A DNA stretch of 64,000 nt from a virus. Each line of letters begins with the position of its first letter. Within the stretch, counting starts at the first letter, position 1. The DNA is taken from the IMG/VR virus record IMGVR_UViG_3300049846_001717, positions 1-64,000 of that record; one strand, given 5' to 3'. The notes below the pieces were generated by a model, which saw nothing but the letters and a program-made list of their open reading frames with translations, was not told where the DNA came from and ran no database searches. The translations under genes were made by a program, and so were the position numbers. Shown piece by piece: positions 6,413 to 64,000 of the stretch.

Positions 6413-6420
6413 TATAAATA
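6413..6420 (-). promoter_or_regulatory. putative late promoter TATTTATA
   Basis: Exact copies in intergenic positions at 6413, 18647, 27335, 56851. Confidence 0.55.
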
Positions 6421-56898: not shown

Positions 56899-57171
56899 CT
56901 ATTCAATAAAATCCGTCACCACACGTGCCGCGGCTTTGCCCACCGTTTTGAATGTGGCGAGTGGTGTTAGTGTGTCGTTGACTTTGCGTCGTGCTTCATA
57001 TTGTCGCTTGCCCACCACTTCAATCGTACCAATTTCCTTGCCATTCAAGAACACCACTCCGGTATTCGGAATGTCCGGTGCGACTTCAATACTCACATGT
57101 AGATGTTCGTAAATGCCATGATCCTTGACCACGCCATATTGAATGTAATGATCTCCAAATTTCTTTAACAT
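56899..57171 (-). CDS. hypothetical protein
   Basis: ORF track. Confidence 0.55.
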   Translation of the reverse strand: MLKKFGDHYIQYGVVKDHGIYEHLHVSIEVAPDIPNTGVVFLNGKEIGTIEVVGKRQYEARRKVNDTLTPLATFKTVGKAAARVVTDFIE

Positions 57172-57501: not shown

Positions 57502-58047
57502 TCAAATCGCCCCGTCGGTGTCTTCACCCGGCCCGTCCGTCAGATATAGGTCTTCTGGTAACAGGGTACCATCAAGGGCGGATCGCAATGGATTCTGTCG
57601 AGCATCAGTTCGCGTGTTCGTTTGTTTATGTAAGATGTCGAGTGTCGCGGCAGCAATGGAAATCGGATTATCCGACAGCGTCTCCCGGCCGGCGGCCGTA
57701 CGAATCGATTCCACTTCTGCCGCATGTTGAGTTTGTAGTTGATCTAACATCGACTTGGTTATTTTTGAAATATTCGCGCGCAGTTTCTGCTCATGAATTT
57801 TACGAATTGTGTGCATGATGTTCACGGCCACCAAATCAATGGTGAACAATGTCATCAACATAACCATAACAATGGATAACACCGACCGTGGAATGACCGA
57901 CCATGCATAATATATTATATACACTGGCGGCAGAACATACCAAATGGATTGTATGATCAGTTTGGCCCACAACGTGAGATTTTCTTTCCGGGTTTCATGC
58001 GGCCATAGCATAACACGAAGTTCGGGCCACGAGATTCGCAGGTTCAT
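57502..58047 (-). CDS. two-TM membrane protein
   Basis: Hydrophobic helices. Confidence 0.55.
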   Translation of the reverse strand: MNLRISWPELRVMLWPHETRKENLTLWAKLIIQSIWYVLPPVYIIYYAWSVIPRSVLSIVMVMLMTLFTIDLVAVNIMHTIRKIHEQKLRANISKITKSMLDQLQTQHAAEVESIRTAAGRETLSDNPISIAAATLDILHKQTNTRTDARQNPLRSALDGTLLPEDLYLTDGPGEDTDGAI

Positions 58048-58286
58048 ACCAACCCCAAGAGTTTACGTTCAAGCATCGTATATTTCTGTACCACGGTGCC
58101 GGAACCGTCTCGAACGAATTCTCGAAGTTCGGCCAACAGTTTGGCGTTCTGTTCATCTGCCGTGGTAGATGTGCCGACGGAAGTATACGACGAATTCGTC
58201 GAATCCATCGTATAGTAGGTGATTTTATAATCGGTCATTAATACTCTCCTCGAAAGAACATCACTACGTAGGGAATCCAGTTCCAT
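58044..58286 (-). CDS. hypothetical protein
   Basis: ORF track. Confidence 0.5.
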   Translation of the reverse strand: MELDSLRSDVLSRRVLMTDYKITYYTMDSTNSSYTSVGTSTTADEQNAKLLAELREFVRDGSGTVVQKYTMLERKLLGLV

Positions 58287-58389
58287 GCCACCGGATGCAG
58301 GTCTGCACGTGGGATATGGTCACAATACACCAACCCCCATGCTATACAATATCCCGTGGTTATATACCAGCCTATCAGAAATATGAATG

Positions 58390-58821
58390 TCATCCAAAAT
58401 ATTCAGTGTCGAAAAAGACGAATCGATTGTTGTGAAATCCTACATTTCCTGGCCCAATGTCGAACAGAGACAACTTATCCGACAACCGGTGAATCGCAGA
58501 CGCATGACGAAGATATTGACTATCCGTCAACACCGTCACACGTTGTTGTACCAATACGCCGTCAATCAACGTCGTATAGGGCACATGATCTCGATATTTG
58601 GACCGTCGGACGGATTGAATGAAGTACAGTTCATCCTCTAATGGTTGATGTGCACCATCCCATCGGGTCTTCAATACCCAGTGGTCATTCATTACACAAT
58701 ACCGACTGACCCCAGCTGCAAATTCGGTGAATCCTAATCGTTGTAATGTTGGATCGGCCACCGGATCCGACGACTGTCGAACATGGGGCGCAGCCGAACG
58801 AACGTGAACAGGTAAGTACAT
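58390..58821 (-). CDS. minimal protein-kinase-like fold protein
   Basis: GVSR..VLK..E..DIGPGNVG..FFD. Confidence 0.5.
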   Translation of the reverse strand: MYLPVHVRSAAPHVRQSSDPVADPTLQRLGFTEFAAGVSRYCVMNDHWVLKTRWDGAHQPLEDELYFIQSVRRSKYRDHVPYTTLIDGVLVQQRVTVLTDSQYLRHASAIHRLSDKLSLFDIGPGNVGFHNNRFVFFDTEYFG

Positions 58822-58880
58822 GAAGGAAAGATAGTGGAAGGAACGAACGAAATCAAGAGCAGTTTAACTGTGTCAAATGC

Positions 58881-59135
58881 TTAGATCACACATTTGAACT
58901 GATCGGCTATAATATTTTTCCGTACTGGAAAGGACGCACGATGTATAAGTCGATTACCATCCCGGCTCTGCACAGAATCCTCCACAATATAGTTTGGAAT
59001 CTTATTGGTGAACACGTTCGCCACATAGTTGATCGTGCCGCTACCCAGGTAAAACTCCACGTAACACCGGCCATCCGTCACATACAGATCGTACGGTAAC
59101 ACACCGGCGCTACAAGCAATGATGTATTCAGTCAT
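58881..59135 (-). CDS. tandem paralogue family member 1
   Basis: Y-I-C..VANV..IP..FPVR..F. Confidence 0.7.
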   Translation of the reverse strand: MTEYIIACSAGVLPYDLYVTDGRCYVEFYLGSGTINYVANVFTNKIPNYIVEDSVQSRDGNRLIHRASFPVRKNIIADQFKCVI

Positions 59136-59386
59136 GGTAATATGATTTCAAAGTCTGCCGCCGTGATACCAGGTCTGACCGGAAAACTCACGACATATCG
59201 TCGTAGACCGGCGATCGGGCTAACCTCATATAGTTGCATCTCAAGATCCGGGATTTCACCAAAGTCCACGTTCGCAACGGACCAGATGGTACCCGTATCG
59301 ATTTCAAATTCCAAATAGCACCGATTGTTGTAAACTTCTATATCCGATGGCGGATTGTCGGTACATGCAATGGGATAGGGTTTCAT
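59132..59386 (-). CDS. tandem paralogue family member 2
   Basis: YPIAC..SVANV..IP..FPVRPGITAADF. Confidence 0.72.
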   Translation of the reverse strand: MKPYPIACTDNPPSDIEVYNNRCYLEFEIDTGTIWSVANVDFGEIPDLEMQLYEVSPIAGLRRYVVSFPVRPGITAADFEIILP

Positions 59387-59628
59387 TGGAGCACAATGTA
59401 AAAGTCCGCCGACGTCACTTCGGGACGAAGACTAATCGTCACAATGACGTCACTTGGTGAACGCGTGATCGTTTTGACTTGGTCCGGGATATCAACCCAA
59501 TCAATCCCCGCGATCGAATATAAACACGGATTCCCCGTCAGCGGTTTGGTCCATCGCAGATATAACGTGTGAGTACCCACGGACATATAGTCAGGACGAA
59601 TGCCGCATACAATTTTGTATTTGCTCAT
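59383..59628 (-). CDS. tandem paralogue family member 3
   Basis: YKIVC..SIAGI..DIP..LRPEVTSADF. Confidence 0.72.
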   Translation of the reverse strand: MSKYKIVCGIRPDYMSVGTHTLYLRWTKPLTGNPCLYSIAGIDWVDIPDQVKTITRSPSDVIVTISLRPEVTSADFYIVLQ

Positions 59629-59885
59629 ATGATATGATATGTAAAATCATCCAATGTAATACCGGGACGAAGTCGTAAGATTGCGGTCATGTCGATGCCA
59701 CGCGACTTGGATACATACGTCATTCCAAACGAGTTGGAGGGAATATCACGCCAATGAACACCCGCGATCGACGCCAATGGATCCACGCCAGGGGCTAGAT
59801 GCAGCCATTCAATAATCAGTAGATTCTCTTCGGTTCTGATACTGATCGGATACCGGGTCATGAGAATTTCGTAACGACCGTTCAT
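59625..59885 (-). CDS. tandem paralogue family member 4
   Basis: YEI..SIAGV..DIP..LRPGITLDDF. Confidence 0.72.
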   Translation of the reverse strand: MNGRYEILMTRYPISIRTEENLLIIEWLHLAPGVDPLASIAGVHWRDIPSNSFGMTYVSKSRGIDMTAILRLRPGITLDDFTYHII

Positions 59886-60142
59886 TAGTATAACCGAAAT
59901 TGAAAATCGGATAGTGTCACGCCAGTACGAAGATGCAGCATCATCTGCAAATGTCCCGTGTCATCGTACTGTTGTTGTCGTATCAATCGGGACTCCGGAA
60001 TTCGATGTATCGGCACTTCGGCAATCGACAGTAATGGTTCTATCTTTGATGATATGTTGAACCATGACAAGATCAAGTATCCATTTGTCACCTGACAATG
60101 ATCCGGCATGTGTTTGACGACAATCGTGTATTTGCCGATCAT
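59885..60142 (-). CDS. tandem paralogue family member 5
   Basis: MIGKYTI..SIAEV..IP..LRTGVTLSDF. Confidence 0.72.
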   Translation of the reverse strand: MIGKYTIVVKHMPDHCQVTNGYLILSWFNISSKIEPLLSIAEVPIHRIPESRLIRQQQYDDTGHLQMMLHLRTGVTLSDFQFRLY

Positions 60143-60402
60143 ACGACCACCATTGTGAAATCGTACTGGGTCACAGTTTCTCGAAGGTATACGAACATTG
60201 TAATTTGTACACTCCCGTCGGCAAATGCCACACGACGGACGAATCGACAATGTCGAGGAATATGCGTGAACGGCACTCCAGCGATCGTCACGGCCGGAAA
60301 TGTACGATCCGGTAATCGTTCCCAATTCAAAATTAATTGATGTTGCCACACCGCCCATCGATCGATGGCGTGTGACGTGCGAATTTCATACGGACCATTC
60401 AT
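60139..60402 (-). CDS. tandem paralogue family member 6
   Basis: MNGPYEI..TIAGV..IP..LRETVTQYDF. Confidence 0.72.
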   Translation of the reverse strand: MNGPYEIRTSHAIDRWAVWQHQLILNWERLPDRTFPAVTIAGVPFTHIPRHCRFVRRVAFADGSVQITMFVYLRETVTQYDFTMVVV

Positions 60403-60659
60403 ACAATTTTCACGATGAAATCGTCGTTGGTCAATCCCACACGGAGGTTCAGAATCATGACAGAATTCACCAGACCGTCCGAACGGAGGGCCGTGTGTGT
60501 TCGATACACGGAGAACGGAATGTCCATGACAGACACACCGGCAATGGAAAGCACCGGTACGGTAGGATCGGATAATGCGAACCACATCAACTTCAATTGC
60601 TGCTGATCTACCCAACCTTGTGTCGGCGATATCGTACATCGAATCTCATAAGGCTTCAT
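60399..60659 (-). CDS. tandem paralogue family member 7
   Basis: MKPYEIRC..SIAGV..DIP..LRVGLTNDDF. Confidence 0.72.
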   Translation of the reverse strand: MKPYEIRCTISPTQGWVDQQQLKLMWFALSDPTVPVLSIAGVSVMDIPFSVYRTHTALRSDGLVNSVMILNLRVGLTNDDFIVKIV

Positions 60660-60938
60660 ACCAGCTCCATAATGAAATCCGCCGTCCGGATTCCCGGTCG
60701 CACCGGAAAGGCAACCAGCCATCGATAGTGATAGGGGGAGCCGTTCGAGCAGACGACCCCGTCGCGGAACGGCGATTCGATCCACACCACATCCGGAATA
60801 TCCGTAATTGGAATACCACACACTGTGCGCCGGACACGGGCCAGACCGTGTGGACCACCATGTGAGATACATCACGCCGCTGATAATACTGGTGGCATGG
60901 GGTGACCGGGTACACCGGACCGGATATCGTGCGGTCAT
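60656..60938 (-). pseudogene. tandem paralogue family member 8, frameshifted near 60827
   Basis: MTARYPVRC..PCPA / TVCGIPITDIP..FPVRPGIRTADFIMELV in another frame (2-nt deletion relative to member 10). Confidence 0.65.
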
Positions 60939-61198
60939 ACCACCACCAATTCGAAATCCTTCGACAGAACTCCCGATCGCACCGGAAAGCCGAGAGTCCA
61001 TCGATATCGATTGGGTACGCCAAGGATCAGAGTCTCATCACACTGTACACCCGGGATATCTTCGATCGGGATCCCACAGACCGAGATCGCCGGACACCTT
61101 ACTTGGCCCGTGAAATACCAAATGAAATAGACATTGTCGTTGAGCTTATATCGGGAGTCCGGCAGTCGGATACACCGGACCGGATATCGTGCGGTCAT
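60935..61198 (-). CDS. tandem paralogue family member 9
   Basis: MTARYPVRC..SVCGIPIEDIP..FPVRSGVLSKDF. Confidence 0.72.
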   Translation of the reverse strand: MTARYPVRCIRLPDSRYKLNDNVYFIWYFTGQVRCPAISVCGIPIEDIPGVQCDETLILGVPNRYRWTLGFPVRSGVLSKDFELVVV

Positions 61199-61452
61199 AC
61201 AATCCTCACTTCGAAATCCTCTGGCATCACGCCGGCCCGGACTGGAAAACCCACCGTCCACCGATGTGAGTCCGTGATCACGCTGGATTGCGGATCTTCA
61301 TGGCACCACACCCGTGGAATATTTGCAATCGGAACATCACAAACCGTGAGTGCCGGACACGGGCTGCGAAATTTAGTCCACCACACGAAATAGATACAGT
61401 CTTCGAGCTTATATCGAGTATAGGGGACTTGGGTACAATGGAGAGGGTACAT
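61195..61452 (-). CDS. tandem paralogue family member 10
   Basis: YPLHC..TVCDVPIANIP..FPVRAGVMPEDF. Confidence 0.72.
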   Translation of the reverse strand: MYPLHCTQVPYTRYKLEDCIYFVWWTKFRSPCPALTVCDVPIANIPRVWCHEDPQSSVITDSHRWTVGFPVRAGVMPEDFEVRIV

Positions 61453-61555
61453 ATTTACCTAAATGTGTATAACAGTTCTGGCTGATTTTACCTATCGCCT
61501 ACAGGAAAACGGACTAGGTCGGGGTATTCGCAATGCGATCCTGTTTGGGCCCTAT

Positions 61556-61840
61556 TTATTCAACACCGAAATCCTGGATGGTCAAGCCCTCACGGATCGG
61601 AAATCTGATTTTGATGCCGATCCGATCCTGAACGGCCCGATCCTGAACGGCGAACTCCGGCAGGCCGTCAATGTAGTATGTGATCTCACATCGGGGGATC
61701 TGATCCACAATCCGGCCACAGACCGTCACGATCCATGCGTCGTTTGGCTTCATACCCAACACGATCTCGGCCCATCCCTCACAAAATGTGCATCGCCACA
61801 GGCTCGTGCCGATGATGCGTACTGGATATTTGACTACCAT
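61556..61840 (-). CDS. tandem paralogue family member 11
   Basis: KYPV..TVCG..IP..FPIREGLTIQDF. Confidence 0.72.
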   Translation of the reverse strand: MVVKYPVRIIGTSLWRCTFCEGWAEIVLGMKPNDAWIVTVCGRIVDQIPRCEITYYIDGLPEFAVQDRAVQDRIGIKIRFPIREGLTIQDFGVE

Positions 61841-62073
61841 GAGAAATCCTTAAATTGAACGCCGGGCCTCACATTGAAGAAGAAAATATAGCCGGAGTGA
61901 TCGGTCGAGGGCCGCCAGGTGCCGCGTGGGATCAGGTTGGCATCGACATCACAGACGGTCAGGATGATCTCATGTGGATCGCCGATATGTTCGATCAGGA
62001 TGGCGGCGACGCCGTTAAAGACGTCCATTTCAAGGATCCGCTTATTGCAGACGACCGGATATTTGGCTACCAT
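61834..62073 (-). CDS. tandem paralogue family member 12
   Basis: KYPVVC..TVCDV..IP..VRPGVQFKDF. Confidence 0.72.
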   Translation of the reverse strand: MVAKYPVVCNKRILEMDVFNGVAAILIEHIGDPHEIILTVCDVDANLIPRGTWRPSTDHSGYIFFFNVRPGVQFKDFSW

Positions 62074-62321
62074 GTGAAATCATCCGCGCCGACGCCGGAT
62101 CGGACCGGAAATGCGATGGTGACCGTATTGGTGCCGTAGATATTCCAATTCGGGATATCAACGAATGACACGCCACACACGGTCAATTCGATCTTATTCA
62201 TGAGCCGTGCGGCCAAATGCACCATGATGTGCGTGCGTTCGACGCCGCGACTGAATGAGGTCTTGACCGTTTGTGAGACGCCCAGAATGGGGTGATTGGC
62301 AACGATCGTGTACTGTTTCAT
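62067..62321 (-). CDS. tandem paralogue family member 13
   Basis: YTIVA..TVCGV..DIP..FPVRSGVGADDF. Confidence 0.72.
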   Translation of the reverse strand: MKQYTIVANHPILGVSQTVKTSFSRGVERTHIMVHLAARLMNKIELTVCGVSFVDIPNWNIYGTNTVTIAFPVRSGVGADDFTW

Positions 62322-62668
62322 TACATGTCCAGTGCTTCCCGATCCGGGTAGCGGGCCTCGCTCGAGATATGGGAGAACATCGGCAGGTCGATGGCCTCGG
62401 CCAACTGGCCTCGCAGGGCGATCAGGTCCGCCAGATGTTTGTCGAACTTGACCAGATGCGCTCGTGCCTTCGCCGAATCACTGGCGGATGCGGACAGGTT
62501 GGCATCAAAGGTATTTTCGTCGCCGCGCCGAGCTGACTCGGATGCCATCTGATCCGTTTCGATAGACCAGGTCAGGCAGGCATCCAGCTTCCCTGCGGCT
62601 TCGTGGAGATAAGAGGCCTTCGAGGTCATGGCCGAGATCAGTTTCAGGTCCGGATAGGATCGGGGCAT
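62321..62668 (-). CDS. hypothetical protein (not a family member)
   Basis: Helical ORF. Confidence 0.55.
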   Translation of the reverse strand: MPRSYPDLKLISAMTSKASYLHEAAGKLDACLTWSIETDQMASESARRGDENTFDANLSASASDSAKARAHLVKFDKHLADLIALRGQLAEAIDLPMFSHISSEARYPDREALDM

Positions 62669-62916
62669 TAGTACACTTCCTCGTATTCGACGTTGGTGAA
62701 GCCCAGATCCGTGAAGACCTGCTTCAACAGTTCGTGTGACTCTTCCTGATCGATGGAATATCGCTTGTTGTTGACCATGATGGCAACGCGGCCGGCCTCA
62801 TCCTCGATCCGGATGGGGGTTGTCATTCGTGCCCGCAACGCGATCAATTCGGCTCGATCATCGTTCTGGGCTTTGATGTTGGCGGCGTTGATCGCCGTAC
62901 GCTTGGGATTGGACAT
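62668..62916 (-). CDS. hypothetical protein (not a family member)
   Basis: ORF track. Confidence 0.55.
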   Translation of the reverse strand: MSNPKRTAINAANIKAQNDDRAELIALRARMTTPIRIEDEAGRVAIMVNNKRYSIDQEESHELLKQVFTDLGFTNVEYEEVY

Positions 62917-62918
62917 GG

Positions 62919-63173
62919 TTACACGATCTCCACTTCGAAGTCATCCTCAGTGAGGGATGGACGGACGGCAACGCTATGTTGGGGGCCTTCCATATAACGG
63001 CCGAGTGCGTCCGGGTTGATCACACTCGACATCACGGGAATGTCATCATACGCCACCCCGGCAATGGAAATGATCCGATGTCGGCGTTCGGCGATCGAAA
63101 TCCAGAACCGTCGCATTGATGCCGAGCGCTCGAACAACACTCGGCCCGTTGCTACGATCTTGTACTTAGGCAT
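62919..63173 (-). CDS. tandem paralogue family member 14
   Basis: MPKYKIVATG..SIAGV..DIP..VRPSLTEDDFEVEIV. Confidence 0.75.
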   Translation of the reverse strand: MPKYKIVATGRVLFERSASMRRFWISIAERRHRIISIAGVAYDDIPVMSSVINPDALGRYMEGPQHSVAVRPSLTEDDFEVEIV

Positions 63174-63435
63174 TGACGATCTCCACTTCGAAGTCCTCGA
63201 GCGTGAGGGATGACCGGATGGCCAACGCCGGCTCGCCGTTGAAGGTAACGGTCCTGCCGAACATGCCACGCCTTCGGAAGGAGAAATCCCCTACTTTGGG
63301 AATGTCCTCCCACAGAACACCAGCCACCGAAATGATTTTGTCGTGGTGAACGGCCGGCGCGACCCATACCCGTTCACTTCTGACGGATGGTTCGATCTTG
63401 ATAGGGCCAGTGGCGACGATCTTGTATCTAGGCAT
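63166..63435 (-). CDS. tandem paralogue family member 15
   Basis: YKIVATG..SVAGVLWEDIP..IRSSLTLEDFEVEIV. Confidence 0.75.
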   Translation of the reverse strand: MPRYKIVATGPIKIEPSVRSERVWVAPAVHHDKIISVAGVLWEDIPKVGDFSFRRRGMFGRTVTFNGEPALAIRSSLTLEDFEVEIVNA

Positions 63436-63700
63436 TCACGATCTCCACTTCAAAGTCATCGGCCGTGAGCGACCAGCGAACGGCGACGTATTGCCACGGA
63501 CGGCCCACCCGATCTTCATCACGCCGACCCAACCACGGCGGCGACTCCAATGACAGAAGTTCGGGAATATCTTCCCACATCACGCCCGCCACCGAAATGA
63601 TCCGGTAATCTACCCTGTCCGGGTAGATCCACAGTCGGTTCACATTGTCGGAATATGCAAAGGACACCGGGCCAGTGGCCACGATCTTGTACTTAGCCAT
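63428..63700 (-). CDS. tandem paralogue family member 16
   Basis: YKIVATG..SVAGVMWEDIP..VRWSLTADDFEVEIV. Confidence 0.75.
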   Translation of the reverse strand: MAKYKIVATGPVSFAYSDNVNRLWIYPDRVDYRIISVAGVMWEDIPELLSLESPPWLGRRDEDRVGRPWQYVAVRWSLTADDFEVEIVNA

Positions 63701-63959
63701 TGACGATCTCGATCTCGAAGTTCTGCTGCGACAACATGGGTCGGACTGCCACGCCCTGCCGGTCTACGTAGCCTGTGACATCGCGGCCATAGACCCTTTC
63801 ATGGCCGTTCAACGTGGGGATCTTATCCCACGGCACTCCAGCGATCGACAGAATACGAACGTCGGCCGATTCCGCCTCGATCCACGTGCGTTCTGATGTG
63901 CTCGTGAATCGGAGCTCACCGGTGGCGACGATCTTGTACTTACGCGTCCGGATCGTCAT
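63693..63959 (-). CDS. tandem paralogue family member 17
   Basis: YKIVATG..SIAGVPWDKIP..VRPMLSQQNFEIEIV. Confidence 0.75.
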   Translation of the reverse strand: MTIRTRKYKIVATGELRFTSTSERTWIEAESADVRILSIAGVPWDKIPTLNGHERVYGRDVTGYVDRQGVAVRPMLSQQNFEIEIVNG

Positions 63960-64000
63960 CGTCCATCCCCTCGAAGTCCTGCTCATCGAACGGGACGAAC

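Follow-up and report, generated by a model that had tools for sequence, protein, structure and literature searches.

Positions 58881–63959 of the DNA analysed here carry, on the minus strand, a tandem array of 17 members of one small-protein family, 16 of them intact (79–94 amino acids) and one frameshifted. The window is the first 64 kb (64,000 nucleotides) of the 98,055-bp IMG/VR record IMGVR_UViG_3300049846_001717, which has a CheckV completeness of ~45%, and the source phage is a large uncultured freshwater T4-like myovirus of ~218 kb. It is virtually certain that this is a real coding family and a real tandem array. As judged from the surrounding DNA, the family is probably accessory and expressed early, and we tentatively suggest that its products are binders for host interaction or anti-defence specifically. 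The explanation that we favour as a whole is an old, lineage-specific early multigene family encoding putative host-target binders, an account to which we assign nearly an even chance.

A profile built from the 16 intact copies recovered each of them in the record at E-values of 2.7e-29 to 6e-18, while for the frameshifted copy, c08, the same profile matched its two halves in different frames (E 2e-10 and 2e-6). These values place the family far beyond chance. The open reading frames and profile matches bore out the description of 17 small paralogues of 79–94 amino acids given in a first-pass annotation of this DNA. The copies form three blocks, all on the minus strand. The first block consists of c01 (58881–59135, 84 amino acids, profile E 2.4e-22), c02 (59132–59386, 84 amino acids, 37% identical to c01), c03 (59383–59628, 81 amino acids), c04 (59625–59885, 86 amino acids), c05 (59885–60142, 85 amino acids, starting at an internal ATG of a longer open frame), c06 (60139–60402, 87 amino acids), c07 (60399–60659, 86 amino acids), c08 (60656–60938), c09 (60935–61198, 87 amino acids, the best profile match at E 2.7e-29) and c10 (61195–61452, 85 amino acids, 48% identical to c09). 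A 103-nucleotide non-coding gap (61453–61555), the only sizeable gap of its kind within a block and one in which we saw no convincing promoter or terminator, parts c10 from c11 (61556–61840, 94 amino acids), which is followed by c12 (61834–62073, 79 amino acids) and c13 (62067–62321, 84 amino acids). The last block comprises c14 (62919–63173, 84 amino acids), c15 (63166–63435, 89 amino acids), c16 (63428–63700, 90 amino acids) and c17 (63693–63959, 88 amino acids), the last of these being transcriptionally the first gene of the array. Two unrelated genes on the same strand (together 62321–62916) interrupt the array and part c13 from c14. One of them encodes 115 amino acids (62321–62668) and had no Pfam or PHROG match and no match to the family profile; the other encodes 82 amino acids (62668–62916).

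Stop and start codons overlap by 1–8 nucleotides at 14 of the 16 junctions, in agreement with the earlier statement that most of the genes are translationally coupled. The type of overlap is specific to the block: a 4-nucleotide ATGA in c01–c10 (as between c02 and c01; one junction there overlaps by 1 nucleotide), 7 nucleotides in c11–c13 (c12 with c11, c13 with c12) and 8 nucleotides in c14–c17 (including c15 with c14 and c16 with c15). A Shine-Dalgarno-like tetramer is encoded in the upstream tail for only 6 of the 17 array starts, and a Shine-Dalgarno site within the conserved tail was therefore rejected as a general feature.

The fixed core of the proteins reads Y-x-[IV], then [ST][IV][AC]G[VI]...IP, and at the C-terminus [VL]R-x-x-[LIV]T-x-x-DF-x-V-x-I. 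Five residues (Y4, I46, P47, R72 and F80) are invariant in the copies, and the motif that had been proposed for the family was right in outline. The two sub-families recognised at that time are also real, with 39–55% identity within c14–c17 (YKIVATG) and ~48% within c08–c10 (YPVRC-like).

AlphaFold2 models were generated for c01 (md6919fb5174c) and c16 (m43a6874adf19) with the paralogues as the input alignment. Both predictions were confident, with a predicted local distance difference test score (pLDDT) of 91.5 and a predicted template modelling score (pTM) of 0.79 for c01, and 91.8 and 0.82, respectively, for c16. Both models show the same order of seven strands plus one short helical turn at the x-D-I-P motif. 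The conserved columns map to strand 1, to strand 4 with its AG turn and the IP, and to the stretch from the end of strand 6 through strand 7 (V-R-x-x-L-T-x-x-D-F-x-V-x-I). In contrast, neither sequence nor length is conserved in the strand 2–3 hairpin or in the segment that runs from the IP through strands 5 and 6. The idea of a conserved scaffold with very variable segments is thus borne out, the number of such segments being two. Foldseek searches of the PDB and BFVD with both models gave nothing at E ≤ 0.001, and VIA-align against 48,161 PDB chains gave best Z-scores of 4.4 and 3.6 for the two models, with none at Z ≥ 5; these best scores are under the 7–8 that the tool gives as typical for models without a clear Foldseek match. 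The CS/p23/HSP20 alpha-crystallin and immunoglobulin (Ig) C-type domains are similar to the family in size (~85 amino acids) and in their all-beta, seven-strand make-up, and such CS/HSP20 and Ig sandwiches appear repeatedly among the best, though weak, matches of the c01 model only. However, the best Z-scores to these sandwiches were 4.1–4.4, at a root-mean-square deviation of 3.1–3.5 Å and below 10% identity, and were tied with those to unrelated folds. The best matches of the c16 model (Z 3.6) were to kinase N-lobes and GyrA. Because the sandwich resemblance is absent for the c16 model, we claim no fold membership; the predicted fold appears to be one without a convincing structural neighbour.

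Pairwise identity among the copies ranges from 13 to 55%, the closest pairs being neighbours. A maximum-likelihood tree grouped (c01,c02), (c04–c07) and (c08,(c09,c10)), while c14–c17 fell in an unresolved polytomy with foreign sequences, such that their kinship is taken from pairwise identity only. The copies of the record are not monophyletic: the foreign homologue P0020 nests with c01 (support 96/83). Since foreign homologues are nested within the copies of the array, the duplications must be ancient. Synonymous divergence (dS) ranges from 0.66 to more than 2, with saturation in nearly every pair. Third codon positions differ most, and the proportion of non-synonymous differences (pN) is below that of synonymous differences (pS) in every pair. 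For scaffold columns, pN/pS was 0.14–0.43 in all but one of the eight pairs; the exception, at 0.75, was the youngest pair, c08–c09. These patterns of substitution indicate that the genes are coding and constrained. For variable columns the ratio was 0.41–0.93 and never exceeded 1; the diversifying selection suggested previously was not substantiated by this test, which saturation leaves without power. The best-conserved DNA is an 80-nucleotide gene junction (73–80% identity), and this conservation, together with the block-specific junction types, argues for old growth by unit-length unequal recombination. The paralogue units themselves are the only repeats in the array. A search for RVT_1, the reverse transcriptase of diversity-generating retroelements, gave no match in the 98-kb record, that is, in ~45% of the genome.

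The break in c08 (N-terminal part, 60819–60938; C-terminal part, 60656–60826; both with profile matches) falls in a CACACAC run at 60817–60823. One other run, X4, an independent freshwater metagenome, covered this repeat site, and its contig (depth 6.5) has an extra CA behind 60816 that restores an intact 94-amino-acid c08. The reported frameshift is therefore present in the record and absent from run X4, and the state of c08 in the record is possibly an assembly error or a real slippage polymorphism. Contigs of three other freshwater samples were ≥99% identical over the portions that they covered. Hence the variable segments differ between paralogues and not between populations. Copy-number joints were not seen in contigs of four other metagenome runs, a weak test given short contigs and patchy cover.

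Neither 33 members compared with Pfam and NCBIfam nor the 16 array copies compared with PHROGs reached the cut-off of any curated family; the best matches were single and at chance level (HalOD1, E 0.034; ectB, E 6e-4), far under the cut-off. A profile search of PDB sequences returned chance matches only (caspase-1 at E ~1). The check for a known domain that had been called for is therefore answered by the absence of a match in Pfam, PHROG, NCBIfam and PDB sequences. The ESM Atlas yielded no usable feature match, and the Atlas's own model of c16 was poor. When 1.84 billion representative proteins were searched exhaustively with the profile, the record's own 16 copies and ~17 foreign clusters of 76–104 amino acids were recovered, and no fused or long forms; two long matches, P0021 and P0023, were considered as fused forms and rejected as repeat or antisense artefacts. 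The foreign members are all singletons on ENA, Logan or JGI metagenome contigs of 0.5–5 kb. Several share identical longest-contig values (4149 for P0027, P0032 and P0033; 758 for P0019 and P0030; 777 for P0024 and P0035), a hint that some of them lie side by side and are tandem as well. No homologue was found by megablast and tblastn against 50,697 phage records, nor was a relative found in IMG/VR scans with P0017, P0020 and a back-translation of KYKIVATG. The KYKIVATG pattern occurred at 35 loci in JGI metagenome contigs, none of which matched the family profile. The proteins are without signal peptide or membrane segment and appear soluble. Their isoelectric points range from 4.1 to 9.9, and they are therefore neither uniformly DNA-mimic-like nor uniformly nucleic-acid-binding.

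The genes in the record include those for a baseplate wedge protein, GroEL and a tRNA nucleotidyltransferase, and the genome also encodes ~50 tRNAs and MoxR-like ATPases. Among cultured phages, a Microcystis phage and Flavobacterium phages come closest, with ~40% identity in the baseplate protein, and near-identical DNA is present in freshwater and freshwater-sediment metagenomes from several studies. Comparison with a closer relative, G001 (105 kb, baseplate protein 66% identical), revealed collinearity on both sides of the locus. The flanking genes at record positions 56899–57171 and 66422–66727 correspond to G001 64113–64364 and 67922–68215, and the island between them measures 9.2 kb in the record as against 3.5 kb of unrelated genes in G001. 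The family profile gave 19 matches in its own record and none in G001 or in the 100%-complete G006, G007 and G009. The three complete relatives without the family are 217.7 kb (with terminal repeats), 216 kb and 163 kb in size. Thus the view that the array sits in a plastic, lineage-specific phage island is supported by G001 and the complete relatives.

The case for early expression comes from the DNA upstream of the array. The minus strand has 26 occurrences of an 18-nucleotide box, CCGTCGATTGTAACGAAA, and its variants from record position 66176 to 95728. Almost all of the boxes are followed by TTGACT or TTGCCA, a 16–17-nucleotide spacer and TATATT, as in a sigma70-type early promoter, and many of these box-promoters are preceded by a stem-loop, which is the promoter-early stem-loop (PeSL) arrangement of T4-type phages (PMC2839356). 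The last box-promoter is at 66193–66137, and the array is co-directional behind the ~26 promoters. Between this promoter and the array all genes run in the same direction and a consensus scan found no terminator-like site; nor does any box or promoter cassette lie between record positions 66175 and 58881. We infer that the family consists of early genes and that the array would be the tail of the last early unit. The GC content of the record is split, at 55–64% in the early region and 45–50% in the remainder, and the array straddles the transition (window 58000–64000, record 64000–98055). Within the array the third-position GC content (GC3) falls smoothly from 0.74 at c17 to ~0.5 at c01–c06, in parallel with the genome-wide step.

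The record has three more paralogues, which are more diverged and lie in the early region ~30 kb upstream of the array, so that the family has 20 members there in all. Two of these, the d2–d1 pair (93013–93276 and 93276–93554, minus strand), were identified by hhalign against the family (probability 96.7–96.8%, E ~3e-10); they are without the IP motif and are joined to each other through an ATGA overlap. The third, at 95134–95382, was found by hmmsearch (E 3e-7). The d2–d1 pair sits directly behind a box-promoter, in the order stem-loop, box, TTGACT-16-TATATT, the two genes and the next box. In this promoter region (record 93540–93650, locus L012 13540–13650, minus strand) the ATG of d2 is only 6 nucleotides after the –10 hexamer; to judge by this spacing, the mRNA from which d2 is translated would have no leader or almost none, and other cassettes have a normal GGAG leader. 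The array itself does not run past the window, as it had been thought that it might. The next upstream gene (record 63940–64185, minus strand), whose 3′ end overlaps the start of c17, encodes an unrelated 81-amino-acid, very acidic protein with a CxxC...CxxC arrangement (CPECG...CVEC, zinc-ribbon-like), and the tail of this protein, ...EQDFEGM, bears a mere resemblance to the family motif.

In the explanation that we favour, the array would have grown by unit-length tandem duplication of gene plus junction, because neighbours are the closest relatives and each block has its own junction type, with the copies then diverging to the point of synonymous saturation. In this account the last early transcription unit would end with the 17 array genes, whose chaining by overlapping stop and start codons suggests that the products are made together early in infection. 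Inside the host cytoplasm the proteins would then bind or inhibit, as a repertoire, varied host or competitor targets, serving host takeover or counter-defence, with the variable hairpins giving specificity. This role fits the predicted early co-expression, the dispensability of the family in relatives, the fixed core with variable hairpins and the wide spread of surface charge. T4-type variable regions hold small non-essential early genes as well as defence and anti-defence genes (PMC2839356; PMC12028318), and from position and evolutionary pattern an anti-defence or host-range role is plausible. A bolder form of the proposal, which we consider doubtful, is a germline-fixed repertoire of antibody- or monobody-like scaffold binders, in which an invariant core of a beta fold without a solved relative would carry two hypervariable hairpins. 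The 20 paralogues would be produced jointly within the first minutes after infection, and each would inactivate its own target in host defence or takeover.

Several observations weigh against the binder proposal. By sequence or by fold, we found no resemblance to a known anti-defence protein. With pN/pS below 1, the divergence of the hairpins could reflect relaxed constraint on loops. The reading of the array as early assumes that transcription from a promoter 2.2 kb upstream of c17 reads through to it, and relies on a consensus scan for terminators; no RNA runs were listed among the sequencing runs that carry the stretch.

Other explanations account for some of the same features. The array had at first been read as a gene accordion, in which one host-range or anti-defence gene was recently and reversibly amplified and its copies diversify under positive selection; the amplification of poxvirus K3L is reportedly an accordion of this kind. 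The tandem head-to-tail layout would suit such a process, the conserved junction DNA could support unequal recombination, and c08 appears to have been switched off by slippage of a dinucleotide repeat. However, identities of 13–55%, saturated dS and the interleaving of foreign homologues with array copies do not fit recent growth, no copy-number joints were seen in the four other runs, and pN/pS was never above 1. We abandoned the accordion in this form as very improbable. We regard as less probable still that the copies are decaying, non-functional duplicates or non-coding, even though one of them is frameshifted and variable-column pN/pS reaches 0.93: even at saturated divergence 16 of the 17 frames have stayed open, and the one broken frame is intact in another population, scaffold columns are constrained in seven of eight pairs (0.14–0.43), the fold predictions are confident, and the family is kept in other phage populations.

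Two further possibilities share the idea of a functional family and differ in its targets. Regulators directed at the phage's own machinery or at competing phages, acting in superinfection exclusion or as adaptors and regulators for the translation, chaperone and AAA-ATPase set, would have the same early, accessory setting, and GroEL, the ~50 tRNAs and the MoxR-like ATPases could have clients or adaptors. Relatives, however, retain those machineries without the family, and 20 highly diverged paralogues suit many targets better than one conserved phage partner, which leaves this an unlikely explanation. Alternatively, the products could be virion-associated, as decoration, fibre-accessory or packaged and injected proteins diversified for host surfaces or ejection. 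Small beta-sandwich-like domains are common in phage decoration, the c01 model, and it alone, has a weak likeness to Ig/CS/HSP20 sandwiches (Z up to 4.1), and the window of this myovirus also contains baseplate genes. Nevertheless, the array lies ~40 kb from the baseplate module, behind early promoters and not among structural genes; complete relatives that share the structural genes are without the family, and no structural PHROG matched. We consider a virion role improbable.

The array is of a kind already known, namely the small early paralogue chains of large phages and the hyperplastic regions of T4-type phages; the family itself is new, and its fold possibly so. Like the T4-type hyperplastic or PeSL regions described by Arbiol et al. 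2010 (PMC2839356), the locus is a plastic island between conserved genes, with small ORFans behind strong sigma70-like early promoters, and the d2–d1 pair is a textbook cassette. The 17-gene array differs in having no promoter or stem-loop cassette between its genes, and whereas PeSL regions mostly contain unrelated single ORFans, here one chain of paralogues is linked by overlapping stop and start codons. There is also a likeness to multigene families of large eukaryotic DNA viruses. The MGF110, MGF360 and MGF505 families of African swine fever virus and the host-range genes of poxviruses, including K3L, are lineage-specific tandem arrays of diverged paralogues in a variable region and are thought to act in host interaction. 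The array, also from a large DNA virus, shares this layout and the lineage-specific presence; it differs in that there is no homology, the host is bacterial, the proteins are single domains of ~85 amino acids and there is no sign of recent copy-number change. The internal proteins of T4, which carry a capsid-targeting leader, were also considered as a parallel and set aside, as the conserved N-terminus of the family is strand 1 of the predicted fold.

Large phages spend kilobases on chains of small early genes that evolve fast and are not named in any database, and new host-takeover and counter-defence proteins are most likely to be hidden among them. The present family is a clean case, with 20 members in one record, a confident fold prediction without a solved neighbour and a clear anatomy of scaffold and variable segments, in a defined plastic locus for which relatives without the family serve as natural controls. 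If the copies bind distinct host targets, they would represent a new small binding scaffold and a germline repertoire strategy in phages; if not, they are one more ORFan family of a hyperplastic region.

Inspection of the surrounding loci revealed several additional features. The flanking gene at record 66422–66727 (locus L011 2923–3228, minus strand) encodes a stand-alone cREC_REC, or cyclic-phosphate processing receiver, domain (Pfam E 2.9e-26). Its position next to the plastic island is conserved in 22 phage contigs of IMG/VR, some of them complete genomes (163–218 kb). In the loci of eight relatives, blastp detected no paralogue arrays beside the cREC gene. In locus L090 (8003–9134, plus strand), as in L091, four small genes spread over ~1.1 kb lie just downstream of the cREC gene; these have F-x-[LFIT]-[RKT]-x-W-like (FxLRW-type) tails, and one unrelated 85-amino-acid open reading frame lies among them. 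Kinship of the family with the FxLRW-tail proteins was rejected (hhalign probability 0.2%). The early cassettes of the record also include a MoxR/CbbQ-type AAA ATPase (record 81048–82244, minus strand) and a STAND/AAA-like NTPase (93647–94582, minus strand), both conserved in G001. Finally, four exact octamers of the T4 late-promoter type, TATAAATA, occur in the record, at window positions 6413, 18647, 27335 and 56851, every one of them on the plus strand. The first two, at least, are intergenic, and the motif reads TATTTATA on the minus strand, which carries the neighbouring genes.

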